Assembly: GCA_030704615.1 (NCBI GenBank)
Contig: JAKLZA010000169.1
Coordinates: 1-23,000 of the forward strand
Direction of reading: 5' to 3'
Source: Takakia lepidozioides
Taxonomy: Eukaryota > Plantae > Bryophyta
Length of the DNA stretch: 23,000 bases
Positions 1 to 23,000 of this stretch are shown here, one piece after another. Position numbers and translations under genes: made by a program. Under the pieces are notes generated by a model. That model worked only from the letters and a program-made list of their open reading frames with translations. It was not told where the DNA came from and made no database searches. Position 1 is the stretch's first letter. Every line of letters begins with the position of its first letter.

Positions 1-129
1 TTTTGGTTGCATTGGCCACCATCGAAATGGAAAGGTGATGTAGTTTCTCTTGAGTCATTTCTGGCTTGGAGCCATACTTGTCATAGTGTGCTTTTCACCT
101 GCTCCAGAAATTCCGTGCCAAGACCTGGG

Positions 130-847
130 TGTCGCGGCCCTTTGCCTTGAGGGCAGGGGGTTGGGACACATGAGGGGCTGCCCCTGTGGTGGGGGCAGTG
201 GCAGCGATAGGTATGGGGCTGAGGCACCCTTGAGTGCCCAAGGCACTCAGGGAAGCGGAGGCGCTCACTAGGTGGAGCCCCGCAGTTGCGGTGGGGGTGG
301 CTCCACAAGGGGTGGTGGTAGCTTAGTGGGACTTAGTGGGGGTGTCATAGGACTCACCATGGGGGCGGAGACCTCGTGGTGGGAGTCGTGGGGAGTCTTG
401 GGACTCATCACGGTCCATAGGGGCCGTGGTGAGCGGGCCAAGACTCACCGCGACTCACCACCGGGAATCGAGGGTCTTCGTGGTGGTTCGCCATAAAATG
501 GCATGGCTGGTTGTGAAACCCCCGCGGACAGCTACAGAAGTATATATAGGGAGTAGTAACCCCGAGAACGGTGCAAGCCCGTTGGTGACCAAAAACTAGT
601 GAGTAAGCGAGCGAGCCGGAAAGCGACCAAAGAGTGGGGAGCTGTTCCGGACTGCCATCTACCAAAGGGAATTCTCCTAGTCCCAATTAGGTAGAGGGTT
701 TTAGAGGGAAGCGAAAGGGGACCGTTATGTCCCGGTGAGCAGCCGAAGCTCCAAGTTGGCCTGGCGGCCAGGTTGGGAGTTAGGCGCGCGCATCAAAGCG
801 AGTAACTATGACTTGAAGGGGAGTTTACCGAAGTGAGGTGCGCGACA
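130..847 (+). repeat. 5' LTR of chromovirus
   Basis: Starts TGTCGCGGCC, ends GTGCGCGACA; near-identical to 6365-7081; TATA-like TATATATAG at ~540. Confidence 0.96.
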
Positions 848-849
848 CT

Positions 850-861
850 TGGTATCAGAGC
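850..861 (+). promoter_or_regulatory. Primer binding site (tRNA-iMet)
   Basis: TGGTATCAGAGC 2 nt after the LTR end; canonical plant iMet PBS. Confidence 0.95.
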
Positions 862-902
862 TTAGAGTTCAGTACGCGATCGTCCTTGGGATTGGCCTCA
901 TC

Positions 903-1990
903 ATGGGGTCGGGCAAGCCGAAGCGAAAGCGGAACGGCCCAAAAGATGATGATCCCGGTGAGCCCGATGGGGGCGACGTGTCACCGAGGCGGCCGTTTGA
1001 GGAAGCGATGCATGTTTCCGAAAACGAGGCCGCCAAGAGCGGGAGGAATCCGAGGAGTCGGAGCCCGAGGAATCCTTGAGAGCTCCGACAAACCAAGAGA
1101 TGCCTCCCATGCCGGCAGCCTTTTGGGAAGGGTTGTTGGCGCAGTTTGGCGGGACGTTGAAAGACGTGTTGAAGGCGGCTAATGCCACTTCCACTAAGGC
1201 AAAGTTTAAGGTGAAGCCTAAGGAACCCGGCACCTTCGAGGGCGTCCGAAATCGGAAGGCACTCAACACCTGGCTCTTGGAGCTAGAGCAGTACTTCCGG
1301 GCGGCCAAGTTGAGTGACGAGGATCGGGTGGAAGTGGCTCCCACCTATTTGAGGGGCTATGCTCAACAATGGTGGCAGAAACGCCTTCACGACCGAGGTC
1401 CAAGCCCGGAAACCTTGAACTGGAGTGGGTTCAAGGAATTGATGAAGAGACAGTTTGTGCCCCTCAACGCGTCCTGGCTTGCCCGGGACAAGATGAGGAA
1501 TTTGAAGCAAACAGATGACATTCGGGGGTATGTCCAGGCTTTCAATGTGCTGTTGCTCGAAGTCGCGGACATGGCAGAACCAGAAATGGTCTTCAACTTT
1601 GTGGCGGGACTGGCCCCATGGGCCAGGCGGAAGTTGGAGGAGAAGCCACCCAAGACTTTGAACGAGGCAATTGAGAGGGCTGAATGTTTCTCGGATGTCC
1701 CTAGGGGTGAAGACAAGGCCGTACGGAGCTGAACCACAAGAAGACCCGGCGGGAAGGTGACTCCTTCCGACCGGAAAAGAAGTGGGATAGGCCACGCGGC
1801 GAAAATGGCACGTGGAAATCGAAGGGAGGGCCTTCACACGTCAAGGCGGCACCCGGTGCTTCGAAAGGAAAAGCGGGTGGAGCGGCTTATGGCGGACAGA
1901 AGGCGACCTTTGATGGAGTGTGTTTCAATTGCGGGGAGCCCGGGCACATGGCCAAGAAGTGCACGAAGCCCCGACAATTGAACATGACTC
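903..1990 (+). CDS. gag: Gag with CCHC zinc knuckle (frameshifted at ~1075 and ~1725)
   Basis: ATG at 903; Retrotrans_gag-like PGTFEGVRNRKALNTWL...YLRGYAQQWW...W..FK; CFNCGEPGHMAKKC at ~1921. Confidence 0.9.
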
Positions 1991-4900
1991 GGGCGACCAC
2001 GGAGCTGTCGGAAGATACCATCAGTCGCTTGGTGGAAGCGGTGGTCGCCAGGACTTGCAAGGTAGGCAAATTTTCTTGTGAGTTGTATCAGGAAACTGGC
2101 GCCTTACGAAAAGGGAGTCAGTTATTGTTCGTGGATGGGATAATATCCGGAACTAATGTGTCGTTGTTGGTGGACACAGGAGCGTCGCACTCCTTCATGA
2201 CACCGGCAACGGCACAAAAGCTGGGACTCCCGACAAGTGACGTGGGGCCTCTATTGAGGTGCGTTCTGCCAAAGGAGAACCACAGTTGGCGACAAGGTTG
2301 GCGTTTGATGTTCCTCTTCAACTGGGGAGTTGGGAGGGACGTGAGAACTTCACCATCTGCGAGATCGATGGAGTGGATCTCATTTTGGGGATGACCTTTT
2401 TGAGCAAATCCGGAGCGGTCATAGATGGCCGCAAGAGAGTAGTCACGCTGCCATGTGGGAATGGTGGCGAGGTTTTACGAGTGTCGGAAACGCCCAAATC
2501 CGTGGGAGGGCGAATAAACCTTCTGTCAGCAAAGGAGTGGGCCGTGGAGGAGGCACACGAGCCCCAGTTTTTGCTTTACATTAGAGAAGTGAAAGGAGAA
2601 GGCGATGGGGAGCCGAGCCCAGATTGGATCAAGGGGATTTTGGAGAAATACCAGGATGTGATGCCGGAGGATTTACCAAGCGGCTTGCCACCGCGAAGAG
2701 GAGTTGACCACAAGATTGAGGTGATACCGGGATCGGAACCGCCTGCCAAGGCGCCCTACCGGTTGAGCCACAGAGAGTTGGTCGAGCTGAAGACTCAGCT
2801 CAAGGATCTAATGTCAAAGGGGTACATCCGGCCGAGTAAGTCACCTTACGGAGCCCCGGTGCTATTCGCAGACAAGAAGGATGGGACGCTGCGGATGTGT
2901 GTCGATTACAGGGCTCTGAATAAGGTGACTATCAAAAACCGGTACCCTTTGCCAAGGATCGACGACCTCTTCGATCGGTTGGCAGGAGCGAAGTATTTCA
3001 GCCGGATCGACTTGCGCTCCGGCTATCATCAAATTCGGGTGGCGGAAGGAGATGAGGAGAAGACCGCGTGCAGGACAAGGTATGGTTCATATGAGTTCTT
3101 GGTGATGCCTTTTGGGCTCACCAATGCACCAGCGACATTTAGCACGCTGATGAACAGCCTTTTCCAGGAGTGGTTGGATGACTTTGTGATCGTGTACATC
3201 GACGACATCTTGGTGTACTCGAAAACAAAGGAGGAGCACCTGGAGCACCTCAAAAGGGTGTTCCAAAAATTGCGAGAAGGGAAGCTGTATGCCAAAGCTT
3301 CAAAGTGCGAATTCGGGGTCACAAAAGTGGAGTTCTGGGGCATGTGATTACACAGGATGGGATCAAAATGGATGACAGAAAGGTGAGGGCGATCTTGGAC
3401 TGGGAGCCTCCGACTTCGGTCCCGGGAGTGCGATCCTTCCTAGGACTCGCCTCCTATTACCGGAAGTATGTGAGAAATTTCGCCAAGATCGCGGGGCCGC
3501 TGTCAGACCTTCTGTGTAAATCCAAAGTCTGGGTATGGAACACCTTTTGTGGCCAAGCTTTTGCTGAATTGAAGCAGCGGATGGCGGAAGCTCCAGTCTT
3601 GAAAATCCCGGAGTTCGATCGTCCATTTGAGATTCATACAGATGCGTCGGACTTCGCGATTGGGGGTGTACTTATGCAAGATGGACGTCCAGTGGCTTAC
3701 GAAAGTAAGAAACTGAATGAAGTGGAGCGACGGTGGCCGACGCACGAAAAAGAGATGAAGGCGGTGGTGCATTGCCTTGAGCTTTGGCGCCACTATGTTG
3801 GTTCCAACCCAGTGAAGGTGTTCACGGACAATGTCACGGTGAAGTATTTTGCCACGCAGCCCAAGTTGTCCCCAAAACAACTTAGGTGGCAAGATACTTT
3901 GGCGGTGTTCGACGTGGATATCCAGTACAAACCGGGACGGGACAATGTGGTGGCCGATGCTTTAAGTAGAAAGCAGCAGCTCTTGTTGGTGTACAAGGGC
4001 GAGACGGCGCTCCAAAGGAAGATCCGGAAGGCTTGCCGGAAGGATGAGCTGGCGAAGTCCGTGATGCAGGACTTGAGGATGGGGGTTAAATCGCAGTTCC
4101 ACTTGCAAAATGGACTGCTCCGGTATAAGCAAAACGTCTCTACGTGCCGAAGGGAGGGATCAGAGATAGCCTCTTGAGAGAATGCCATGATAGCCCGCTT
4201 GCGGGCCACGGCGGAGCCAAGCGCACTGCGGCACTCTTGAAGAAAGAGTATTTCTGGCCCAAACTGAGGGAGGAGGCAGAGGAGTATGTCAAGACATGCA
4301 CCACATGCCAACAAAACCGGAGCGAGTACAAAAAGCAAGCGGGGCTGTTACAACCCTTGCCGATTCCAGAGGGGACTTGGGAAAGCGTCTCGATGGATTT
4401 CATGACTGCTATGCCGCTGTCAAAAGGATTCGATGCAATCATGGTGGTGGTGGATAGGTTCAGTAAAATGGGCCATTTCATCCCCACCAAGGAGACGGCA
4501 ACGGCGCAGGAGACAGGGCGACTTTACTTCGCCCACGTCTTAAAGCATCATGGAGTCCCGAAGGATATTGTCTCGGACCGCGATCCAAAGTTTACGAGTA
4601 AATTTTGGAGGACACTTTGGAAGAAGATGGGGACGAGGCTGAAGATGAGCACCGCCTTCCGACCTACGACGGACGGCCAAACGGAAAGAGTGAATTCCGT
4701 AGTGAAGCAATTCTTGCGGAATTACGTGTCGGCAGACCAATCAGACTGGATGGAACACTTAGACGCGGCAGAGTTCTGTTATAATAACACAGAACACTCC
4801 GCAACGGGAGTTTCCCCTTTCGTATTGGTCTATGGAAAAGCACCTCTGGTGCCGACAAGTTGGGCCGCCCAGGACGTTGAGGAACCGGCAGTAGCGGCGG

Positions 4901-5460
4901 TACTGGAAGAACGCGAGCGTTTGTTGAAGCTCGCAAAGTACAACATTGCCAAAGCTAGGAAACGGTATGAAAGGCAGGCGAATCGGAAGCGGAGGGAAGT
5001 GAAGTTTGAGGCAGGCACAGAGGTCTGGTTGAACATCAAGAATTTCCGACTACCTCCGGAAGTGAGTCCGAAGTTCGTACCTCCGTATGCGGGACCCTTT
5101 CGCATTCGGAAGGTTATGAATGAGGATGTGTATGAATTGGAGCTGCCGGCAAACAGCAAGGTGCACCCAGTATTCCATGTCTCCCTTTTGAAGCCTTACT
5201 TCAAAGATGAAGCGCGTCCGAATCGGCATCAAGTGTTGCGTCCGCCACCTATGCTGTTGGATCATGAAAATGAACCTGAGTACGAGGTGGAGGCAATACT
5301 TAAGTCGAGGAGGTTCAAGAACCGAGAAACGGAGTATCTCGTCAAATGGAAGGGCTATCATCATGTGGAGGCATCTTGGGTGCGTGCCTCAGAAATGGGA
5401 AACGCATCCGAGGCGGTTGCAGCTTTCGAAGGGCGACCTCAAAAGCGGAAGAAGCGTTGA
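1991..5460 (+). CDS. pol: Pol: aspartic protease, RT, RNase H, integrase, chromodomain (frameshifts at ~2250, ~3340, ~4135)
   Basis: [10 protein letters not shown]; [27 protein letters not shown]; TDAS...DALSR; HDSPLAGH...CTTC; SMDF/VSDRD/TDGQTE; YAGPF; C-terminal basic tail RPQKRKKR. Confidence 0.95.
5278..5430 (+). other. Integrase C-terminal chromodomain
   Basis: [35 protein letters not shown] retains the Y/W/Y aromatic cage residues. Confidence 0.92.
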
Positions 5461-6350
5461 TGGGGACATCAACCTTGGAGCGTGGGGGAGGAAATGCATG
5501 CTTAGCCCGGCTTAGCTAGCTTAGGAATCCGATTGCAAAAACTTGTATTGTACAAAAATTTGTTATAAAGGAAATGGGTTCCAAATGTTGTGCGTCCTAT
5601 TTTGTTTGGAATGGTGATGCATGGTATGGTTGGCTAGTGTGTAGAATGCATGCTAGCTTATAAAAGTGGGAGAGGTAAATTGGGTTAATCGTGTGTTTGC
5701 GTAGTGCCGAAATCGGGTGACCCCATCCAAGGGGCAAGGAAACTTGCGCCTTCTTTGGGAGTTCACGTGCTAGTGCGCACCTGGCGCGTGCGCGTACTAT
5801 AACTGCGCTACCGAGGGGGTTGCCTTGTAGTGCGGGCTAACGCGGAAGCTACGTGCTTCCGTTCACGTACTATAATCGTGTAGCCTCGGGACGAAGTCGT
5901 AGTGCGGCTTCGGCGTGTTCCCGTACCTCAGGCCAGCATTCCAAGGCGGACCCAATTGTAGTGATTGGGGCGCACGGTTGGTTCAAGGTTATCTTCCTAG
6001 TCAAAGAGGGTTCCAGGTGAACCCTTGCTCAAGGTGATGCCAAAAGCGGCATCATGAGCGATCGCAAGCAATGTTGTTGCAGTAAGGCGATTCGATCCTC
6101 GGGGAGGATCGTTCCTTGGCCTTGAAGTAGGCCAAGAAGAGTGCACTGGGAGGAGCTGGAGAGGCTCCACCCTTGGCCGGGACTTGGAGGAAGTCGGCCG
6201 AACTAGCTAGTGGAGAGTAGAGTCAAGTGTGGGGTTTGGTTCTTTGCCATGGGACGCCATGGTACGGAAACAAACTCCTTGATGTGGGACGCCACAACTT
6301 GGATGTTCGTTTCTACAAAATGGACAAGTCGATGAGGACATCGACTCCCT

Positions 6351-6364
6351 GTTGGTAGGGGGTG
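6351..6364 (+). promoter_or_regulatory. Polypurine tract-like site
   Basis: G-rich GTTGGTAGGGGGTG immediately before the 3' LTR. Confidence 0.8.
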
Positions 6365-7081
6365 TGTCGCGGCCCTTTGCCTTGAGGGCAGGGGGTCGGG
6401 ACACATGAGGGGCTGCCCCTGTGGTGGGGCAGCGGCAGCGATAGGTATGGGGCTGAAGCACCCTTGAGTGCCCAAGGCACTCAAGGAGGCGGAGGCGCTC
6501 ACTAGGTGGAGCCCCGCACACCGGGTTGCGGTGGGGGTGGCTCCACAAGGGGTGGTGGTAGCTTAGTGGGACTTAGTGGGGGTGGCATAGGACTCACCAT
6601 GGGGCGGAGACCTCGTGGTGGGAGTCGTGGGAGTCTTGGGACTCATCACGGTCCATAGGGGCCGGGTGAGTGGGCCAAGACTCACCGCGACTCACCACCG
6701 GGAATCGAGGGTCTTCGTGGTGGTTCGCCATAAAATGGCATGGCTGGTTGTGAAACCCCCGCGGACAGCTACAGAAGTATATATAGGGAGTAGTAACCCC
6801 GAGAACGGTGCAAGCCCGTTGGTGACCAAAAACTAGTGAGTAAGCGAGCGAGCCGGAAAGCGACCAAAGAGTGGGGAGCTGTTCCGGACTGCCATCTACC
6901 AAAGGGAATTCTCCTAGTCCCAATTAGGTGGAGGGTTTAGAGGGAAGCGAAAGGGGACCGTTATGTCCGGTGAGCAGCCGAAGCTCCAAGTTGGCCGGCG
7001 GCCAGGTTGGGAGTCAGGCGCGCGCATCAAAGCGAGTAACTATGACTTGAAGGGGAGTTTACCGAAGTGAGGTGCGCGACA
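6365..7081 (+). repeat. 3' LTR of chromovirus
   Basis: Direct repeat of 130-847; differs by roughly ten substitutions, a 6-bp insertion (CACCGG) and several 1-bp, mostly homopolymer, indels. Confidence 0.96.
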
Positions 7082-8373: not shown

Positions 8374-8781
8374 CTCATTCTCATAGACTGGAGCATTCAA
8401 GGCGGTGAACTGTGGCACTCGGCATCAATTGTCGCGGCAGCTCCGATTACAATAATGCGGGGAACCATGGAGCACTGCAATAGTTGATGACCGTCATCAA
8501 CGATATCAACCCCAATCGTTTTTACAACAATAAAAAATAAATTATATGCGGCGCTTTCGAGGGAAATTCATTTGTGTCTTTTTGCAAAAGGTCCGGCGAC
8601 ACTCCCGACTACTCGATCAAGACCTTGATTCAACAACTTGCAGATCACGGTTGTAAGGTCCGTGGGAGTATCCACTTGTCTATGACAAGACAACAATGTT
8701 ATCGACGGGATGCTGACCGTCAATGCGATCGTTTTTGGGTGCAATTATAATGACAATGTCAATAACGTTGATTTATGCTAA
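8373..8781 (+). pseudogene. KP4 killer-toxin-like pseudogene (5' truncated)
   Basis: LGINCRGS at 8418, NPNRFYNN, LADHGCKV, GMLTVN; in-frame stops TAG 8481 and TAA 8538 plus frameshifts; paralogous to 9292-9750, including the 3' UTR start GCGGAAAGCAAA. Confidence 0.9.
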
Positions 8782-9190: not shown

Positions 9191-9291
9191 GTCTCCGCTT
9201 GAAGGTTACAATAAAATACATTAGACTCGCAACCAAGCAAACACGAGCGACCTCCTCGTAATATTTCTTCGTCTTACCATTGCATTTCATC

Positions 9292-9750
9292 ATGGCACTA
9301 CATTCATCAGTTGTCCTCACCGTTCTCATTCTCATAGCCTTGAGCATTCAAGGTGGTGTTGTGGCACTCGGCATCAACTGTCGCGGCAGCATGTTTTGCT
9401 GGAGTTATTGGGACTATAGAGAAGTACTATTTGCGTTGGAGAGCGTCATCGACTTTCATATCGACCCTAATCGCTTTTACAACAATGAAGAACAGATTGC
9501 CTGCGGCTTTTTTGAAGGACAAAGTTTTTATGGACAAACTTTTGTGTCTTCTGCCAAAGTTCCGGTGGCGCTCCCGGCTACTCGATCAAGACCTTGATTG
9601 GAGAACTTGCAGATCACGGTTGCAAGACCTGTGGGAGTATTCCACTTTTCTATCCACAACAATATTGCCAACGGAATATTGACAGTCAACGTGGTCAAAA
9701 ACGCCTGCAAATATGATACTTATGATGGTTACACCGTTGGCCTATGCTAG
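9292..9750 (+). CDS. Secreted KP4 killer-toxin-like protein (two compensating frameshifts at ~9541 and ~9658; gene or young pseudogene)
   Basis: 25-aa hydrophobic signal peptide, then LGINCRGSMFC...IAC...CVFCQ...LADHGCKTCGSIPLFYP...NIANGILTVN...GLC*. Matches the KP4 signatures LGINCRGS, HGCxxCGSxP and GxLTVN; intronless. Confidence 0.88.
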
Positions 9751-9850: not shown

Positions 9851-10613
9851 GTTAAGAATTGCTGACAAAACTTTAAACTCACTATGTAATAGTTACGCTG
9901 GAAGTGATATTTATGATATTTCAATAACTAATGGTAGTGGCAAATGTTTAAAAGCAATGTGTACAACAATTCAAATGTATATGAACATTTGGATATTTTC
10001 AACTATCTATGCTTAAATAATACTTAAGCAGTTCACACATTCAAAGTGACAATATATCAAGAAAGAAACCAATTTACTTTGGAAAAATCCATTGATTTTG
10101 GGTAGAAGGCCAAAAATGAAAACCATGTGTGGATGGGTAGAATTGTGAGTCCTCTAGCTATTCCCAAAAAACTACGTCAAAGAGGTTTCATATGACCAAT
10201 ATATGGCCAAACCTATAAAGTATAATCTAAATCTGACCTTATAAATTTTTAAATTTAAAACAATAAATATTAATTCCGCATTCATTACAATAATTTGAAA
10301 TTTGGCTTAGAAGCATATAATTGACCGATTAGTAAAATCTTTCACTATAGCTAGGGAACATTACTCACCTATACACGTGTGGAACAATATGAGTGGCTGA
10401 AAAATGCGTGGTACCAACTACGTGGATATACAGTCATGGACATTTTTTGATTCAATCTCTTCGTCTTAGTTTAACGAAGTCCTACATGTGCGAGCTTGCG
10501 TGATTATGTGTAGGAGCTAAGTCCTAAAATGTGTGATTTGTATTGTGTGTGTGATCTTTGAAGGTGGTTTTGCTAGCTTTTCTCATGTATAAAAAAGTAT
10601 GTTGTCACTCACC

Positions 10614-12057: not shown

Positions 12058-12584
12058 TGTCGTGCGCATACATATCGCTACACAACTACATCGCTGTCCA
12101 AACCACACCACACATATATGCACAATAAAGTAGTCTGCCACAATGATAACAAGCTAAAATGACACACACTCTCAACACAAGAAATATGAAATCCATCGCT
12201 ATCACTCTTTAAAATAGAAGTCGAGCCAGGGGCACCCCAAGCTATGGGGACTCCACCCCACAACAACCTATACTCCCATCATAAGCACACTCAGATCTAA
12301 ACGCATGAAGGAGCTCGGTCGCGCAGGCTCAACTCGAGAGAGATGAGCGCGCGACTGCCGCTCTCGTGAAGATAAGACGGTTCAGGTGTCAAACTAAACT
12401 TGACACCTGATTTAACACTTGACCTAAATCCAAGTGTTAAATACAAATAACTAGTTTTATTCTAGTTGTTTTCACACTGTGCTTATTTAACTTGACAGCT
12501 GTCGTGCGCATACATATCGCTACACAACTACATCGCTGTCCAAACCACACCACACATATATGCACAATAAAGTAGTCTGCCACA
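12058..12584 (-). repeat. 3' terminal repeat (LTR) with A-B-A structure
   Basis: Identical 87-bp direct repeats at 12058-12144 and 12500-12586. The minus strand reads PPT, TGTGGCAG...CACGACA, GC, TGTCAAG...CACGACA. Confidence 0.8.
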
Positions 12585-12596
12585 ATCGCCCCCTAG
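12585..12596 (-). promoter_or_regulatory. Polypurine tract-like site
   Basis: Minus-strand CTAGGGGGCGAT directly before TGTGGCAG. Confidence 0.65.
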
Positions 12597-12844
12597 CTGG
12601 TGGATAGGTCCCTCTACCTCCAGATAGCTACAAGATGTAATAGCCACAACCGTACTAAGTCCTCTATCACTGTCCCTATTGTACTCAAACTCTATAGACC
12701 AAGAGGCCGGGTACAAGAGTAGCCCCATCGTTAGTCGCCGTCTTGCAATCTGTGAACTTGAGCCAGGACCTCGTGTGTTCAAGGTCTCCTAGTAGCTGGG
12801 CCTTGCGTTTCTTGTTAGCCTTCCATGGTTGTATCCACTCCCAC

Positions 12845-12935
12845 TATCCAATGCAATGTGGACATAACCAATCCCCATCCGGAACCATCTAGAAGCAAGT
12901 GCCAGCACACCAACAAGCAACACACCCTCAAACCT
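12845..12935 (-). other. PHD-finger remnant at the integrase C-terminus
   Basis: GLR-C...LLVC...WHL...MVPDGDWLCPHC* read across a frameshift; the intervening loops are missing. Confidence 0.65.
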
Positions 12936-14090
12936 GCAGATACCACTGCCAGGTTTGGGTCAATCCTGCCATCGACATTCGGAAGGTGACATGGCGCACA
13001 ATTACGCACATGGTCCTTCCAAGTTATGCCATCCCGACCCTCCAAGACCAAGACGCCTGAGGGCAAGACCTCTCGAACCCTCAAAATAACACGTCCTGCA
13101 GTCACATCCAAGGTCGTAGGAGCAGTCTGCTGCAGATAGACATAGTCACCAGGGTTGAATCTCCGAACCCCAGGACGATAGCCCCCACCACGTATGGTAG
13201 CATACCTCAACGTATCACGGTGTTGTGCAATGGCAAGGTTCTCGAAAGCCATGGGCATGACTCTCTTGAACAACTCTGCACGCTGCTCACATGCACGTGC
13301 CCACACGTCCGGATCGTCAAGGTTAAGAACTGTAGCAGCTTCTCTGCGAATGGATGTAGGCAAATCCGGCTCTCGGCCAAAGAGAAGAAAGTATGGTGAG
13401 AAGGAGGCAAGTGATGCTTGCTTGCTGAACCTGTAGCCCATGGCTAACCAGGGTAACTGAAGGTCCCAATCTCCTAGGTGTCCCTTCTGCAAGCCATACT
13501 TGCGCCCTCTTTACTGTCCTGAACAACTCTCTCTGCCAAGCCATCGGCCTCAGGATGATCCGAGAAGTGGTGCGGTGGTCTATCAAGGCCTTGTCACACA
13601 AAGCCTGAAACTCCCCCAAGAACTCTCTCCCTTGGTCCGTGAGTACCTCAGCTGGAGCACCGAATCGGCTAAGCACACAATCCAAGAATGCATACGCAGC
13701 TCCCTCACTAGCCTTATCAGGCAATGGAACCAATTCAATCCACTTGGAGAAGTGCTCCACCATCACCAACACGTACTTGTTGTGGCGCATGGTCAGTGGC
13801 AACGGCCCTGCGAAGTCAAGACTCCACCTGTAGCCCAATCCATGATCGGAAGAGGGTGCAATTGTGGAGTAGGGGCGTTGAATGAAGCACGCACCCTGTC
13901 ACACACCATGCACCTAGCCACAAATTGTTGCACCTCTGTGTGCATACCACGCCACCAATACTGCCCCTGCAGTAGACTATGAGTGCGTCGCACCCCAAAA
14001 TGCCCCAACTCCTCATGGGCATGCCGCACTAACCGTGCCCGCTGTGTTGGGTGAGGCACAATCCTCACTCGACCATCCTCCCACACTCGG
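12936..14090 (-). CDS. Integrase (H2C2, DDE core, C-terminal domain), frameshifted
   Basis: HEELGHFG...CMVC; WSLDFAGP, VEHFSKW, LTDQGREF, DGLAE; WDLQLP...SPYFLLFGREP. Confidence 0.92.
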
Positions 14091-14399
14091 AGCAGGTGTG
14101 TCCCCTCCCACTTGAACCTCTGGCTCGTTGTAGGATCCGATCCCTCTCCTTGGCAGTCACAGTGGCTGCCGTGTCTCCAGTGCGGAGGTAGTCCAACACA
14201 ACTGAATCCTCATGTATATCTTTGGCGCCACCTTGCTCATTGCTGGCCTCAGGGTCCTCAGACACTTGATCTACAGTCATCCCTGTTGCAGGTCCAACCT
14301 GGCCTTCCGCTGCCAAGATACACAGAAATGCAGATGCATGCCATCCGGGCACCATCTCCTCGTCCGTCTCACCATGCCACCGAGCTCCAGTGTCATCCT

Positions 14400-14900
14400 G
14401 CTGGCTCGTGCATGGATTGCGACTCAACCCATCTGCATTGCGATTGACCAAACCCGGTCGATGCACCACCTGAAAGTCATACTCTTGAAGGATGAGTGCC
14501 CACCGTGCAAGCTTCCCCGTAAGCTTGTCTGACTCCATCAACCACTTGAGTGGTTGGTGATCCGTGACAAGGGTGAAGAGATTGCCGTATAGATAGCACC
14601 TGAAGTGTGCCACGGCCCACACTGCAGCTAAGCATTCTCCCTCATATGAGCTATACTTAGACTCTGCAGCATTGTTCGAGCGGCTAGCATAAGCCACTAC
14701 GAACTCTCTTCCCTCATCATCCACCTGTGTGAGCACCGCTCCAAGCCCCAGCATGCTCCAATCTGTATGCAGCTGAAAAGGACGCCCCCTGATAGGTCGT
14801 CTCAAGATGGGCGCCGAGGTCAACCTCGCCTTGAGCTCTTGAAAAGCTTGTTCTTGCTCATCTTCCCACTGCCACTCCTGGTCCACCTTGGTCAGCTTGT
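14400..14900 (-). CDS. RNase H
   Basis: FQLHTDWS, YEGECLAAVWAV, TDHQPL, NADGLSR. Confidence 0.93.
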
Positions 14901-15720
14901 GGAACCTGTGCAATGGACTCTACCTTAGTCTGCTGTACCCCCAATCCTCCAGGATATATCATGTGACCCAGATACTCAATCTGGTTGTGGAAAAACTTGC
15001 ACTTGCCCGGATGTAACTTCAATCCGTGCGTCCTCAAGCGCTCAAATACCCCCTGAAGGTGTCTCTCATGCTCCTCCACCGTAGCACTAAAGATGATGAT
15101 GTCATCTATGTAGCACCGAGCAAACTCCACCCCTGCTAGAATCCTGTCCATGACTCTTTGAAACTCAGCGGGAGCGTTTTTAAGCCCAAATGGTAAGAAC
15201 CGCCACTGGTATAGGCAATCCTTCCCGTGCTCATTGATCCCCCAGAATGCCGTCTTTTGCTTATCCGCCTCCTTGATCGGCAACTGGTGATATCCGGATC
15301 GTAAATCCAACGTGCTAAAGACCTTGGAATGCCCAATGGCATCAAAGATCTCCTCTGGTGTCGGCATGGCATACCTATCGGACTTGGTCTGACGATTTAC
15401 AGGCCGGTAATCACCGCACATACGTCTCTCCGTCCAATTGCCATAGACATCCTTCTTGCTGGCATCACTGTGGCTGAAGCATACTCTCCACCAGAGAGCT
15501 CCACCAAACCTGCCTCCCAGAGATCTTGAGTCCTCATCTGAATCAAAGACCTCTCCATGTCACTATCTATAGGGTCTCCGAAAGATTGGCGTGTCAGTGG
15601 CCAACTCAATACGGATCTCTTGACCCTTCAGTGCTCCCAAGTCCTTCAAACTGAAGGCAAAGCAATTCCTGTAAGCCCTCAGGAACCGCCGTATACGTCG
15701 TCTCTCTCCTCCGGTGACAA
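14901..15720 (-). CDS. Reverse transcriptase (thumb segment deleted)
   Basis: [38 protein letters not shown]. Confidence 0.95.
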
Positions 15721-16099
15721 TGGGTCCAATGTCAGGCTCCCAATTGTCCTCCGTAACTGCAACCTTAAGTCCAGTGGGCTTAGAGGTAGAGGACGCGTCC
15801 CGTGGTTGCTATGCTGCAACCTCTTGAGCAGTACTCCCTTCCTGCTCAGTCAATGACAAGGCCTCATCCTGCCCCATCATCTCATCATTGAGAACCTCCT
15901 CAACCCGAGAAGAATCCCCAACCTCATCCATCACAGCTGCCTTGGCTGCCAACTCCCTCTGAACCTCGAGCACCCCACGTGTGCCATGGATGTCTACACC
16001 CGTGGTCCTCACCGGCTCGCCCCCACTCGCTGCCTGTACCGTCTCGGTAGGCAGAGAGACCGTCAAGGGAAGTGCACTCCGCACTCTACGTTGCTCAGC

Positions 16100-17056
16100 C
16101 ATAGCCAAGCTGATAATCCAGGTCAAGCAATTGAGATCCATTGCTTGCCCCAACACCTGACGACGTGATGCCTCAGAAAGAGAAGGCACCGCCGTGGTCC
16201 CAGTGGAAAACCCCATAGCCCGCTCTCGCTCGTCGGCATTAGGCTCCACTAACTGCTGCAACTGAGCATCCCACAGGAGGCCAGGTCCACCATCCCGAAA
16301 AGCATGGGATCCTGGGAAGCTGAGCAGTGTAGGTAATGCTGCTCGTGGTTGACCCACCCTGTTGACCACTGCCAAAGGCGAACGGTCATCGTGTCTCACA
16401 CGTTGAGACTGCCTCCTGTGTCCAAAATGCCATCCACGGTGAGGTGTGCTGGCCGCTGCACCCCATCAAATGCACGCTTGAGCAGTGCGGGTGGCATCAA
16501 GTTAGTCCACCATAGCCGTGGACGATGAGCCCGTGACCCCACTGCAGCTGCATCCAGCAACACTGCTGACCCAAGCCACGACCGGACTTGATGCACACTG
16601 GCCATCACCCTGGCCCGAGAATCACCCATCAGTGGCACATTCTCCAAGATGTATGCTGGAGATACAGCTTGATGAAGCTGCAAGTGGCGCAAAATCCGCA
16701 CCATCTCCCAAAACAGACCCGTCCTCGAGTCTCGCAATCCATTGCCATGCCCGGCTGATGAATGCCCTTGGCAGGGCCAACCTGCCACTACCAGATCAAT
16801 GGAGCCAACCTGCTCCAAATCCGGCCCCCAGCAACGAAATGTCTGCTGGCAAGGCTTGTTGGTATCCACGAACTGCAGACACTGGCAACAAAGTCAGGGT
16901 ACTGCTGTACCAACTGAGCAACATGGCGCAGTGAGACGCGTCGTGCAGTCTCATCCCTCTCCACATACAGGTAACGTTACCCGCACACCTGCCTGTAGCA
17001 CAGCAGCCAATCCGGTGCTGATCCCGCCAAACAAGTCCAGAAGGCAAATGCCTTCA
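16100..17056 (-). CDS. C5-cytosine DNA methyltransferase domain (DNMT3-like motif style), split by frameshifts
   Basis: Motif I LLDLFGGIS, II YVERD, IV AGWPCQG (PC at 16771-16776), VI ILENV, VIII AHRPRLWWTNL, IX ERERAMGF, X RRQVLGQAM, all in canonical order. Confidence 0.93.
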
Positions 17057-17449
17057 TCCGGATACTGCCACACAATAGGTGTGGTATCCAATGGTGACAA
17101 CTGAGGTGGTCCTGGTGCAATACCACTCTCCTCCTCTCCTGACGGTACAAAAGCCTCTACCCAGGCTTGTTGCACCCGTCGATCAGCAACCTGCTGCAAA
17201 TCCTTGCTCGTACCCCACAATGGAGTGTGAGCAACCATGGCAGGCAACTCCGCCATACCATGCATGTCATCCTGCTCTGCTGGAGGTGGCACATCCTCTG
17301 CATGGGCATTGCCTTCCAGCAACTCTCCAGGCCAACTAACTGCAGCTGTAAAGGCGGCTAGTGTTGGCATCTTGCCCCGCTGGGCAGCCGCAATACCCCC
17401 AATGAATGTCACAGGGAGCTGTGCACGGCGACCATCCCTGACTGCCATC

Positions 17450-17850
17450 CAGGCCTGTAGGATGCTGACTCCTCCCAAAAGTCCAGGGTGAAGCCCATGG
17501 GGTATAACACTGCCCCACCAACGAGGACATCGTAAGAGACCGCGTCTGTCACAATGGCCTTGGCTCGCATCACTGAGCCATCTATAGGATGATCCGGCTG
17601 CAGTCTAATGGCCAACTGATGCCGTGTCATGCCCGAGCCTGCTCTGATCCTCCCAGAGATGTCTGTATCTGGAAAGGACAAGGCTCCATATCCGCCTCCA
17701 TGAGGCCCAAACCTGCAATAGCAGCTCTGCCCAACATCAGTGGCTGAGCTCCCGAGTCCAACAAGACCCAGTGGCCGGTACTTCTTGCCTGCCGGTCCAC
17801 TCAAAGTGAAAATGCCTCCTGGTTGTCTAACAAGACAACTCCAGGTGTCA
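17450..17850 (-). CDS. Retropepsin-like aspartic protease
   Basis: VLLDSGAQPLMLG (Asp at 17756-17758, in a frame not shown in the ORF track) and YDVLVGG. Confidence 0.85.
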
Positions 17851-18499
17851 CCATGGCGCGCTCAAAGGCTGGCCTAGCTGGCAGCTCCGTCAACCTGGCA
17901 GCTGCAGCTTGCCAGGGCGCAGCCGTGGCAGTCTTGACCCTCAAATCCGAGGATCCCTCTGCCACTACACCTTCCACTAACTCCGCAGAAGATGAAGTGA
18001 CCTCCCCACTCTCACAGAGTGTTGCTGCTAGTCTGAACACTGCAGCTGGTCTTACCCCGGCGTCGCAATCATGGTTGCCGAGAACAGTGGGGCTTGACAC
18101 ACAGAGGTGGCTGCCCCCAATAACACACCGGCTGCACTAGCCTTGGTAGCAGGTGTCAGTGCTGCACGTGTAGCTCTCCCCAATGGCATAGTAACCTCCG
18201 CCTCGGTAACAGTCGGGCGAGAACTAGGTGCCATGGATGGCGTCGACACTGTCTCCGCCAATGTGAATGACTGAGGAAGCCTCGCCTGACGGCTTGCCTC
18301 CCCACGCTGTGGATCCAATTCCACCTCTGCACCTCGTGGCTCAGGAACTCGTGCTGCTCCTCGAGTCACGGCTGCAGCAGACTCCACCTGCTCTAGTGGT
18401 AGTGCTGCTCCGCACATGAATCCCATGCCTCCCATATCTCCTCCCTCAGGAGCAGGAGGTGGACCATCCCGCCTGGGAGCCGGTACCGCCTGAGCTATA

Positions 18500-19936
18500 G
18501 CCATGGCAGCGAGCCTCTGCTCTAGCTGCTGAAGCCGGTTGGCCATGCCTTGGTCAACACCCTGACCTCCGCGTCCTTGGCCATGTGGAGCTTGCCCTTG
18601 GCCTGCACCTCGTGCCCGACCACCTCGTCCTCTCTGGGCTGGTCCACCTCGCCCCGGCCACCATTGTTCCCTTGGAACTGGCCTGGGCGCAACTCAGGAT
18701 GCAAGTCATAACACTGGGCATCTCCATGCCCATACTTGCCACAATGCCCACACTGCAACTGTGCAGGCTGTGCTTGTGCCGGCCTTTTGCCACTCTCTGG
18801 GCAATCTCTCTTGACATGGGGTCCTCCACATGTCCAACATATCACCCCTGGTTGCTGTTGGCCTGCAAAAGATGCCACGGGCCTCTGCACCTGAGGTCCC
18901 CTGTAAGCTCCATGGAACTTGGGCTGGGCAACCTTGCCCCCCTGACCACGCTGTTGGGCAGTCCCTTGTGCCTGTGGGCTGACAGCTGTGCCCCGTGCAG
19001 GCATGTCCTTGCCAAATCCAATGTAACAACTCGCTCCTCCACCATGTTGAGCTCAATCCGCTCAGCCAGCAGAAACACATCTGCTAATGTGGGTTGGGCT
19101 GCTTGTAACAGGGTTGCATCTCGCACCCTTCTCTTGAGCTCCTTGTCCAGAATTCCATACCAAAACTGGATTGCCTGAGCTTCAGTAACCCCTTGGGTCA
19201 CACTTATCAAGCGCCTCATACGAGTGTACGCCTCTCGCAGGCTCTCACTGGGTTTGCGCTGGAAGTCTTGCAAACTTCGCAGCTTCTCTGTCCGTACACC
19301 TTGGTAGTTCCTCCGCAACTCCTGGAAGAACTCCACCACCGGGTTGAATCTAGGCACATGTGTTGTAGTCGTGGCAGGAGGAGTAGTAGCACCTTTTGAA
19401 CTGGTACCACCTGCAGAAGTACCACTACTTGCTCCACTACTAGTGCTGGCAGTGGGAGCTATTGGTACTGATGCAGCTACTGGTCGCGTCGTGCCTCGAG
19501 TAATGGAGACGTAGTCAGGTGACCAATACATCCTCCACTCCTCAATCTCTGCTTCATGTCCTCGCCTGAACTCGTGGTAATCGTCCATAGGCGGGCCTTC
19601 CAAATGCTGGAACAGTCCCTTCCACGCCATGAATGGGGTGAATAGCTGTGGATTGCGCATCTGCTGCAAATCACACCAGCTGTCGAACTCCTGGATAAAG
19701 TCATCCAACTCGATTGTGCCCACAGCTCCAGAGTACCTACGAGGCCCCTTGGTAGCTCCATACATCTCCTCCATGTCGTCCCACAACAATGGCGAATGAA
19801 AGTGCACACCTGTTGATGAAGCCTCCGAGTCTGTGTCTGACTCTACAGTAATTGAGGGTGGCGGTGAAGGTGGTCTGAACCGAATACCTCGTCTTGTGAA
19901 CCCACTCTCACTGTTACTGCCTGTAGCCGTACTCCC
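18500..19936 (-). CDS. gag: Gag-like protein with two zinc knuckles
   Basis: LDDFIQEFDSWC...LQDFQRKPSESLREAYTRM; knuckles CWTCGGPHVKRDC and CGHCGKYGHGDAQC; the frame stays open upstream of 19807 to ~19936. Confidence 0.85.
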
Positions 19937-20629
19937 TCAAAACCCTTGGGTAACTCCGTAATGACACTCACAATGTGCACCTCCTCCACGTGACACTATA
20001 AGGCTCTAGTACTAATCTAATAGTGACACGGGTGGGCACCTGTTGCAGTTTAAGGGTCATATCCCAATGGCTCAGGGCACCTGCACCTGCATCCACCGCA
20101 AGAACTCCTATGGTTGGCTGGTCATCAACCCAGCCTCACCATAGAAGAAACACTGGTGGTCTTGCTGGTCATCACTCCAGCCTCACCACCGACAGCATAC
20201 TCTAGGATTGACCGGTGATCAAATCCGGCCTAATCCCTATGAAAGCAAGCGCCCACACAAAACCAACATGGCGCACAGTCAAGCATGCAGGTGTTGGGGG
20301 GATCCAAACACAAGAAATCAAAACATCAACACCCCCACACCAAAATCCAGCTGCAATGCTGATCCTGCAGAATATCCCAGCCCAAAACCCCGGACTGACT
20401 GGCCTCCACCAAGAGAGGCTTTGGCAACTACAAGTACAAGGTAATGAAAATAGTACAGAGATGGAGGGGAAGAATAGAAGCCCGACCAAGCAAGATCTAA
20501 TCCTGATCTATGCTATCAACTGCCAGACTTCTCTCAAAGTGCCTCGCTCTGCATGATGGTAAGGTGTAGGAGGTATATCTATGTCCAGAAACCTGCCACT
20601 AACCTTGTCCCAAGCTACAGTAGCTCGCT

Positions 20630-21340
20630 CTAACCAACCCTCCTCCTCTTTCTGCCAGGTAGAGACAAAGCAATACTCCCTATCTCCCGCTCACTGAACA
20701 CTAAAGAAAACAAAGGTAGGGTCTGATAGTCTCTCAACTCGAAAGCTTTGAGACGGTTGCGGGTGTCCTCATTGCGAATGACTGCATCTCCTTCAAACAG
20801 AACAAACTTGTCATTGCTAATGAACCCCCGCTCGTGGTTGCCTTGTGCAGAGCGTGTCCGGCTGCAACCATGTCTGATTGCACAAACTTGTGTAGCTCCT
20901 GCTCCTCTGCTCCAGTACACCACGGCCTTGTGGCTGAACACTTGGTCCCCGGGGCTGTCTTTGGCTGTGTTCCAAGCCTAGCTTTCACCCACTTTGGTAT
21001 TTCACCTACAGCTGCAGAACTGCTGGCTCCAACAGAGTTCTGACTCCAAGGCGATATTGAGGCCCTCAATGCCAACTACAGCAGTCTGTTGTCTACTGCT
21101 AATGCCTGACTCCCAGTATGCAATCAACTCGTCCAACTGTTCTCCACTCAAATCAGTCTGAGTTCCTTGGGAAACATAAATCTTGTCCCCTTGTGCACAG
21201 GCTAAGAGAAGAGACCTGCCCTTCAATTACGTCCTCATTTCCCCCAGCCATACAAGGAGTACATCCCCAGATTTGTCTCTCATGTAGACCAGAACAGGTT
21301 CTAGAAACAGGATTGTGGATCTTTCATGGCACACTCACAC
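20630..21340 (-). pseudogene. Degenerate ORF of unknown function upstream of gag
   Basis: ORF pieces 21002-21226 and 20630-20941 share one frame, separated by a few stops; protein-like composition; no recognisable motif. Confidence 0.3.
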
Positions 21341-23000
21341 TCTAAAAATTCCATAGATTTTTAGCAGAGTCCCAAAAACAAAAACCAGGTCTAGATAGGT
21401 AGATTTCCCTTTCTGCAGCTATCCCCCCAAAAACTGAGTCAAACGAGCCATTTGACAAAGATATGACCAATTTGGCTTTAAATCATTTAATTAGATCAAA
21501 GGGTTTTTTTTAAAGGTTTTCAAATTTAAAAATTTAAAGTTACACCCAAAATATCTGGTAACTGGTTCCCGGTTCCTAAGTTCTATATGGTTTCCTAGGT
21601 TTCCCTGGCCACGTGCCCTATAATTTCTAGATTTCAGTTGTGTTTACAAATGCACCCCCCACAGCTCTTGGTTACCAGTGACCTGCTCTCCTCCAGTCGA
21701 GATCCGTAGCTATGCGAGCCTTAATCCTTTGCACCAATATTCCCAACAAAAGCAAGAGCACTTACAATGCAACCCCGGAAAGCACCAGAGCTAACTAGCT
21801 TGATCAAGAACGCTTACAGCCCTTCATGCGTGCTGATTTTTCAAGGTGACAACAACAGATCTGCTATCACTGATTGTGTAAGCCTTTACATGGAGTTGGC
21901 ACAGGCTGCCCTCAAGTTTGAATTGTAAACATAGACCAAGCAGGTCGTGTAGTGAGCTGGGCCCCTTCAGCTCATATCCCGCTCATACACAAGTGTCACT
22001 GGTGAGTCCACAGTCTCCCACTCTCATACTCTCCAGTAAAGATTGCCTGAGGCTTGCTGTTGCAAATGGCGTAAGTGCAGCAACTTGTTGTGCTGGCTCA
22101 ATGTGGAGTTCAGCTGCATTAACCATCTTTACAAGGCCATGCACAGGCTCATGTAAAAATTGCCAAGCTATAGTTCAAAGAACCACAAAGAAAAGCTGCT
22201 GTGGCCAGCTTGACCAACCACGAGGCACAAGGCGCTAGTCCCAACTTTCACTATTGGCTGGAAAGATTGCCAACCATTCTTTCACCACAACCTTAGAAAT
22301 CTTCATCAGGTGTGTGAATTAATGCTTCAGGGGCTCAAAAGTACTGAGTACTGGCTGGCAGGAAGTTGCAATGCCCCACATCAAGGTGGCCTGTAAGCAC
22401 TGCACCACGAGCTTCTCTTCAACAGTGCGCGGGTGTCCAACTGCCCTCATGCCTTCTGCACTCCAGCCATCTCGAGCCACAAAACCCATTCCACTAGAAG
22501 CAACACTCAACCAACGAAGTGACAATGGAAGGCTACACAGATGGTACGCCGAGATCAGCGACATGCATCTCTCTGACAAACAGTTCTTTGCAACGGAGCG
22601 CGCCTACCAAACTCGCTCTGCGCAGAATCTGCCAACGATCAATGACACACATGCCCAGGCGCTCCAGCAACACAAACTCCTGTGACAACCAACCGTCAGA
22701 CCACCAGATTATCCTCCGCTCTGCAACACCTACGCCACCTGGTGCTCTTGGCTAACAACCCAGGTATCAAACGAGCACCGAGTGCGCTCAACAGTGATCC
22801 AGCTCCCACTCTGATCCAAAAGTACGCTACGCCAGGCCCCTCACAACACATGGACACCTCCGTTCACCGATCACTGCCTTTACTAAGCACGGTAGCAAAC
22901 TATGGTCTGGACTTCTCAAAATCGAGCTCCTCCACCTGCGACTGATGGCATTGTGCTCTTAAGACAACCGCGCCTTTGTTATGGAGATGGCCTTGGCGAT

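Follow-up and report, generated by a model that had tools for sequence, protein, structure and literature searches.

Organization of the element and its neighbours

The window, a stretch of 23,000 nucleotides of Takakia lepidozioides (contig JAKLZA010000169.1), carries on its minus strand a retroelement with the domain order gag-PR-DNMT-stop-RT-RH-IN-PHD. The gag region (18525..19936; PF03732, E 7e-4) has zinc-knuckle-like motifs and is followed by an aspartic protease region (17436..17893), recognized by homology to the intact locus L020, and by a frameshifted DNMT3-like C5 cytosine methyltransferase (16100..17050; PF00145, E 1e-13; FGG motif among others). Beyond an in-frame stop codon lie the reverse transcriptase and RNase H (14467..15463) and the zinc-binding (H2C2) domain and DDE core of the integrase (13563..14050; PF17921, E 4e-17, and PF00665, E 2e-14), all frameshifted, and then the integrase C-terminal domain (12986..13240), a predicted small beta-domain that ends in the anchor HVRNCAPCHLP ahead of a PHD finger remnant. 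A sequence-only reading of the same DNA had attributed a DNMT to the element, and this is borne out by the DNMT3-related catalytic motifs PCQ, ENV and RxR; the best PDB matches of the L020 enzyme are DNMT3A/B/C, and the remaining domains follow the Gypsy order PR-RT-RH-IN with a DDE integrase.

The 3' end of the element consists of split direct repeats (12058..12586, minus strand), in which an 87-nt repeat flanks a 355-nt block on both sides (B at 12586-12500, A at 12499-12145, B at 12144-12058), with a purine tract at about 12594-12587, ahead of the first B repeat. A search of 19500-23000 yielded no 5' copy of A in the window; the full A-coding-B-A-B layout was present in 3 of the 18 sister loci examined (L014, L042, L053). 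It corresponds to a two-LTR circle (BA-coding-BA) that has been circularly permuted, the purine tract preceding the first B.

A DNMT3 within Gypsy pol, together with DIRS-like repeats, has been described for KnitGypsy-Dnmt3 (de Mendoza 2018, PMC5890265), whose methyltransferase was inactive in yeast, an inconclusive result (PMC5890265). The elements are alike in the DNMT3-like enzyme upstream of RT in a Gypsy pol and, as seen in full in the sister loci, in the A-coding-B-A-B repeats (PMC5890265). They differ in that DNMT runs on into RT in the Klebsormidium protein P0115, whereas a stop parts the two in bryophyte-type elements. In a DNMT tree, in which the rows are the sister families L020 and L053 rather than the window's own enzyme, these two group with P0115 (SH-aLRT 98). 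That tree is a quick IQ-TREE run with long branches, and the integrase tree, a FastTree run in which row L053 uses the integrase of the sister copy L042, has a very long outgroup branch, so that neither tree fixes a root or tells which way the DNMT moved between the positions described below. From its domains and B-A-B repeats, we assign the window element to the published Gypsy-DNMT3 (KnitGypsy) clade, as a damaged copy of a variant that carries a candidate readthrough stop.

The observed/expected CpG ratio was 0.50 in the DNMT element (12851-19936) and 0.89 in a neighbouring chromovirus (1001-5460), a single comparison that fits long-term CpG methylation of the family. This chromovirus (129-7081, plus strand) is complete, with LTRs 97% identical, a chromodomain (PF00385, E 1.5e-12) and several frameshifts. 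It resembles the DNMT element in carrying a reader domain at the integrase C-terminus; it differs in that this domain is a chromodomain, in its ordinary LTRs and in the lack of a DNMT, and its integrase, 26-28% identical, belongs to a distant lineage. Between the two elements, a short secreted-looking ORF (9262-9597, plus strand) matches the antifungal killer-protein family Kp4 over the first half of the model only (PF09044, E 9e-10); its tandem duplicate, a paralogue, lies at 8374-8671, some 950 nt further upstream. KP4-like genes in mosses are regarded as fungal transfers. An inverted match of 130 nt between 21345-21470 and 10083-10210 (72% identity) is probably a small dispersed repeat.

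A broken PHD finger behind the integrase

The remnant of the C4HC3 finger occupies 12853..12925 (minus strand) and is divided between two frames. The frame of the integrase C-terminal domain reads GLR-VCCLLVCWHLLL at 12934-12890, and a second minus-strand frame reads stop-MVPDGDWLCPHCIG-stop at 12891-12844, retaining VPDGDWLCPHC with the P-x-G-x-W pocket motif at the C-terminal side. PHD anchor motifs had been reported here, after the integrase C-terminal domain, by the sequence-only reading, and both motifs and coordinates are as it described, with the addition that the pieces are out of frame. The canonical Cys4-His-Cys3 spacing is absent from any one frame of the copy as assembled: from the C1 equivalent to C8 it spans 73 nt versus 135 nt in relatives, and is thus 62 nt shorter than its sisters. 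The pol stop codon (12844..12846, minus strand) follows three codons past C8.

A Pfam scan of the ORF at 12818-13510, which includes the remnant region, matched no family, and against a profile of 78 intact family PHDs the remnant scored 1.3 bits (iE 0.13), the best of nine six-frame profile matches, with one noise match at 0.9 bits. The remnant alone is not significant; its identification rests on its position and on sister copies, by which 12925-12853 is identified as a broken PHD finger on the integrase of a Gypsy-DNMT3 element. As assembled, this copy is incapable of the histone-binding, readthrough or methylation roles proposed below for the family. A chromodomain at the integrase end, as found in chromoviruses, was rejected for the DNMT element, since the frame closes after C8 with no such domain behind it and PF00385 was found in 0 of 33 relatives scanned; a chromodomain query over 78 metagenome loci gave a single match, 4 kb away.

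Within the remnant, a 35-nt patch (12891..12925) is a mosaic of conserved PHD codons. Contigs of two other studies (X7, X8) link 12890 to 12926 via 97 letters where the window has 35. In these 35 letters, conserved codons are mainly kept, the variable loops are gone and the order is collinear with the PHD DNA of relatives, an alignment of modest significance (21-64 of 500 shuffles score equally well). Across 12835-12984, contigs of four runs of one sample have a depth of zero at 12895-12914 and are deep on both flanks, which is compatible with an assembly artefact, although a hole in contigs proves nothing. The window's pol has four frame changes and only two stops, both inside a short out-of-frame stretch; the corresponding counts in decayed single-element sister loci are 6-20 stops and 0-2 frame changes. 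The neighbouring chromovirus is likewise frameshifted, with 8 gaps and 9 mismatches between its two LTRs. The excess of frame changes over stops, together with this frameshifted neighbour and its gapped LTRs, suggests an assembly prone to indels, or one that merged different copies into a consensus. We lean towards regarding the PHD lesion as an assembly artefact, and the 35-nt patch is possibly an assembly consensus artefact. Small indels were also noted at 13504-13560 and 12588; at these sites most contigs of the other runs share one reading that the window lacks, as would be expected if the copy were private or error-prone. In this assembly, remnants known by motifs alone may thus reflect consensus artefacts, not biology.

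Intact PHD fingers in related elements

A protein search with the integrase tail yielded 185 matches, 120 of them listed. PF00628 was present in 111 of the 120 listed homologues, which upholds the earlier preference for a PHD finger over a chromodomain, and 105 of the 120 had the full C4HC3 pattern directly after an HxxNCxPCHLP anchor. The best named matches were from Marchantia polymorpha (80%), Calypogeia and Klebsormidium, joined by Sphagnum fallax from a PHD-only protein search, which returned three proteins, each element-derived; these names point to a probable bryophyte host. Among 78 metagenome loci, 59 extend past the integrase C-terminal domain, and in 32 of these the PHD is intact and in frame, the remainder having mostly decayed PHDs. 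The alignment of sister copies that had been proposed as a check thus did recover an intact finger; in L020 it matches PF00628 with an E value of 4e-10. A scan of IMG/VR with the L020 pol found no relative.

Bryophyte- and Klebsormidium-type proteins end 0-13 aa beyond C8. In algal-type relatives, the PHD is followed by a tail that can reach about 450 aa, with no Pfam chromodomain in it. In seven between-subfamily pairs, pN of the PHD was 0.26-0.34 versus a pS of 0.57-0.97 (uncorrected and near saturation), values similar to those of the adjacent integrase domain. These substitution patterns indicate that the PHD is under purifying selection between subfamilies.

Predicted ligand of the family finger

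For the family PHD, the best 60 of 85 and of 108 PDB matches were headed by CHD4, ATXR5, DPF, BHC80/PHF21A and BAZ2, and also by KDM5-PHD1, UHRF1 and AIRE, which, going partly by entry titles and by the papers cited below, we take to be readers of unmodified H3. An AlphaFold model of the intact relative L020 had a pLDDT of about 81-86 over the finger; it superposed on the ATXR5 PHD with an rmsd of 0.8 over 47 columns and also on BHC80 and UHRF1, the fold matching ATXR5, BHC80, UHRF1 and DPF at 0.7-1.4. The ATXR5 PHD holds A1 on Pro60/Gly62, R2 on Asp41/Asp44 and K4 on backbone carbonyls (PMC5499861), and in the UHRF1 PHD, D334 is essential, while loss of D337 lowers affinity nine-fold (PMC3214078).

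Pocket residues were compared in three groups of 19, 21 and 67 proteins, set by similarity and source names. The R2 aspartate after C3 was present in 18/19, 21/21 and 62/67 (101/107), and the proline of the A1 pocket in 18/19, 21/21 and 59/67 (98/107), so that the relatives combine the R2 aspartate and the P-x-G-x-W A1 pocket of an unmodified-H3 reader. The window keeps VPDGDW, and its R2 aspartate position falls inside the lost part. A second R2 aspartate is mostly absent from family PHDs and is missing in the window's lineage. At the position before C1, an aspartate of the H3K4me0-selecting BHC80/AIRE type is found in 20 of the 21 Klebsormidium-type proteins, and a glycine in 15 of the 19 bryophyte-type proteins and in the window. 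Ahead of the third cysteine, the window's lineage has a stretch with a net basic character (-1.2 vs +3.2 in algal-type members).

In H3K4me3-reading PHDs, the cage tryptophan stands two residues ahead of the zinc histidine. Tryptophan is never among the top residues at this position of the family PHD, where glycine is found in 19/19, 21/21 and 58/67 proteins (98/107); an identity as H3K4me3 reader was rejected on these grounds. Such readers, of the ING/BPTF type, need an aromatic cage (PMC3214078). The sequence-only reading had expected the finger to read the state of H3K4, an expectation that is not supported as stated: with the cage tryptophan absent and the K4me0 aspartate lost in the window's lineage, K4 sensing stays putative.

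The family finger is thus like those of ATXR5, BHC80 and UHRF1 in its C4HC3 spacing, R2 aspartate, A1 pocket and lack of a cage tryptophan, and unlike them in the missing second R2 aspartate, in the missing K4 aspartate of the window's lineage and in that its reader role is a prediction. By residues and model, it appears closest to readers of the unmodified H3 start, and we predict weak to moderate binding of A1 and R2 with loose discrimination at K4. A different fate, in which the bryophyte-type finger has given up histone reading and serves the integrase as an appendage for structure, DNA binding or protein docking, would agree with the Gly, Lys and Arg that have taken the place of acidic residues before C1 and in the first loop of that lineage, and with the structural roles that the conserved aspartate and tryptophan of PHDs also have (PMC3214078). 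We consider it doubtful, as the residues of the A1 and R2 pockets still hardly vary, ATXR5 and UHRF1 hold K4 without an aspartate, and purifying selection on the PHD persists.

A conserved stop codon between DNMT and RT

In the window, DNMT and RT are in the same frame, interrupted by a TAG followed by CAA CCA (15803..15811, minus strand), an exact match to the TMV-type CAR-YYA context and a candidate programmed readthrough site. CAR-YYA is also the readthrough signal of the retroelement SIRE1. After UAG, it forms the TMV signal, at about 10:1 (PMC2754532). Of 38 loci surveyed, window included, with three more too close to a contig end, 32 have a TAG or TAA ahead of CAA and then CCN or TCA; of the other six, L068 has GAG at the stop site and five have unrelated upstream sequence. 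Most surveyed loci are near-copies of one family, with an ATG 7 nt past the stop, so that reinitiation is possible there. CAR-YYA is exact in the window and in L020 and has one mismatch in this main sister family. The stop and a CAA-(C/T)C hexamer are kept in all three lineages (window, main family and L020), with flanking residues that cannot be aligned, and two of the three have an exact CAR-YYA and no adjacent ATG.

The clearest case is the pristine locus L020, which has gag, a -1 overlapping PR-DNMT frame, TAG CAA TCA and an open RT-RH-IN-PHD frame of 1047 aa, that is, a UAG with CAR-YYA and an open downstream frame as in TMV. Gag and PR-DNMT share one frame in L028, L047, L053 and L057. 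Among DNMT homologues, 24 of 40 end 78-146 aa past the last motif and 1 of 40 continues towards RT, in a survey that left out proteins over 853 aa and is thereby biased towards early ends; DNMT and RT are in one frame without a stop in P0017, P0089 and Klebsormidium P0115.

Together, these data suggest that the conserved UAG is leaky and read through. Our literature searches found no text naming a readthrough stop in Gypsy-DNMT3 elements. The stop might instead be a true end, with pol expressed by reinitiation, splicing or a separate transcript, or a lesion shared by dead copies. The downstream ATG of the main sister family and the decay of most sister loci, with their 6-20 stops in pol, speak for this; the persistence of stop and hexamer in three lineages with unalignable flanks, the two lineages with an exact CAR-YYA and no adjacent ATG, and the lack of any other stop in the L020 pol speak against it and make it unlikely.

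Distribution of the PHD-DNMT pairing

A DNMT profile search of relatives gave 34 near-full cases. The enzyme lies before RT in 5 of them and directly before the integrase in the other 29, after RNase H where recorded; named examples of the latter are Pleodorina and Volvox. A PHD is present in 33 of the 34 DNMT-bearing relatives, the sole exception being a partial record. One protein, P0096, has the PHD and lacks the DNMT. Among the metagenome loci, a DNMT was found upstream in 35/78, the others being mostly too short. A Klebsormidium integrase with an intact PHD (P0032) is sister to P0115. Integrase distances correlate with those of the DNMT (rho 0.54; 0.21 within the algal type) and of the PHD (rho 0.48); as kin share history, these correlations show co-inheritance, not co-evolution.

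The sequence-only reading had proposed that the element itself convergently combined a histone reader with a DNA-methylation writer. A newly assembled fusion was rejected, given that nearly all DNMT-bearing relatives have both parts and that the distances correlate; the pairing is inherited. Among the relatives surveyed, members of an old green-lineage clade carry reader and writer together as a rule, and the pair is no invention of this element.

As further observations on the algal-type relatives, the same DNMT3-like enzyme lies between RNase H and integrase in P0048, P0049, P0052, P0053, P0092, P0101, P0107 and others, and P0064 and P0106 have a G-patch domain between DNMT and integrase.

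Discussion

The two halves of the pairing have each been published. PHD fingers on retrotransposons have been called widespread (PMC6673714; PMC8557442) and are catalogued in 10.1101/2021.11.30.470311, and DNMT3 on Gypsy is known from KnitGypsy. A PHD is unmentioned in the searched text and supplements of PMC5890265, where Fig. 4c may draw one; in the portions of the REXdb paper covered, there is no mention of PHD or methyltransferase (PMC6317226), and PMC12344493, as far as covered, cites retrotransposon DNMT3s without a PHD. In the literature text that we searched, PHD and DNMT3 are nowhere named together, though figures and bioRxiv supplements may add to this, and none of the papers found describes chlorophyte-type members whose DNMT lies between RNase H and integrase. 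The idea of a reader-plus-writer element is itself in print, since EpiLTRs already combine a histone reader and a DNA methyltransferase in one LTR element (bioRxiv 10.64898/2026.05.21.726589). These carry a chromodomain, DAM and a DNMT4-related enzyme, whereas the window element has a PHD and a DNMT3-like enzyme (10.64898/2026.05.21.726589).

A functional parallel is offered by Gypsy-7a_cRei, an active Chlamydomonas Gypsy with a PHD in its polyprotein, which inserts into intergenic DNA 2.6-fold over expectation and whose PHD is proposed to limit harmful insertions (PMC9940879). It differs in that no DNMT is listed for it (PMC9940879). REM1, known here from citation, is another PHD-bearing Chlamydomonas Gypsy.

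Our preferred reading, to which we give a probability of about 0.55, is that the intact PHD likely binds the free start of H3 and thereby likely tethers the integration complex to nucleosomes, and that the DNMT is likely a separate, more abundant product. The finger would hold A1 of H3 through P-x-G-x-W and R2 through the aspartate after the third cysteine, and would tolerate or mildly disfavour methylation of K4. Insertion would thereby be biased away from H3K4me3 promoters, as chromodomains do via another mark. Ribosomes would pass the UAG at a low rate, yielding DNMT near the level of Gag and RT-RH-IN-PHD as a fraction of it, and packaged DNMT would methylate the element's own cDNA or the new insertion, the PHD giving it no direct guidance.

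The sequence-only reading had likened the element to the DNMT3 enzymes of animal hosts, which sense unmethylated H3K4 through a PHD-like ADD domain; this analogy implies coupling in one chain. In a coupling of this kind, the PHD would draw the DNMT, with which it would share the uncleaved readthrough polyprotein or a complex, to nucleosomes with unmethylated H3K4 where the element inserts, and the two would act together. The near-constant company of near-full DNMT and PHD (33/34 relatives), the DNMT in frame with pol in algal-type members, P0017, P0089 and P0115, and the unmodified-H3 class of the finger are in its favour. We judge it quite unlikely: in the window's lineage, writer and reader lie on either side of a conserved in-frame stop and of all of RT-RH-IN, about 1000 residues, and such a stop would leave the writer abundant and the reader scarce on separate products. 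The element also encodes a protease, and retroelement proteases normally cut Pol into domains. Moreover, the DNMT moved position whereas the PHD stayed on the integrase, P0096 keeps its PHD without a DNMT, and a single PHD is not an ADD, which comprises a GATA-like finger, a PHD and a helix. Finally, a chance run of cysteines, to which the 1.3 bits and missing Pfam match of the remnant might point, was rejected as having practically no probability, given the PHD at the same position in 111 of the 120 homologues listed, the sister contigs that bridge the gap (97 letters for 35) and the metagenome loci with an intact finger.

Beyond the preferred reading of a tethering PHD and a separate DNMT, we tentatively envisage an old Gypsy clade, spread across the green lineage, that fixed a DNMT3-like writer, moved between two pol positions, and an H3-tail PHD reader. 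Land-plant members would dose the writer by readthrough: DNMT at the level of Gag would methylate cDNA in the particle, the scarce PHD-integrase would pick H3K4-unmethylated chromatin, and copies would arrive pre-silenced in silent regions.

As an accessory, the PHD of the window element is nothing unusual for its known element family, and the added value of our analysis lies in the anatomy. Gypsy-DNMT3 is extended to algal-type elements with the enzyme at another position. The leaky stop, if true, bears on what retrotransposon DNMTs do: it would supply DNMT in quantities close to those of the capsid, which is what methylation of cDNA inside the particle would call for, and would suggest why an isolated DNMT domain may have failed in yeast. 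The PHD on the integrase points to a second route to chromatin-guided integration in plants, beside chromodomains.
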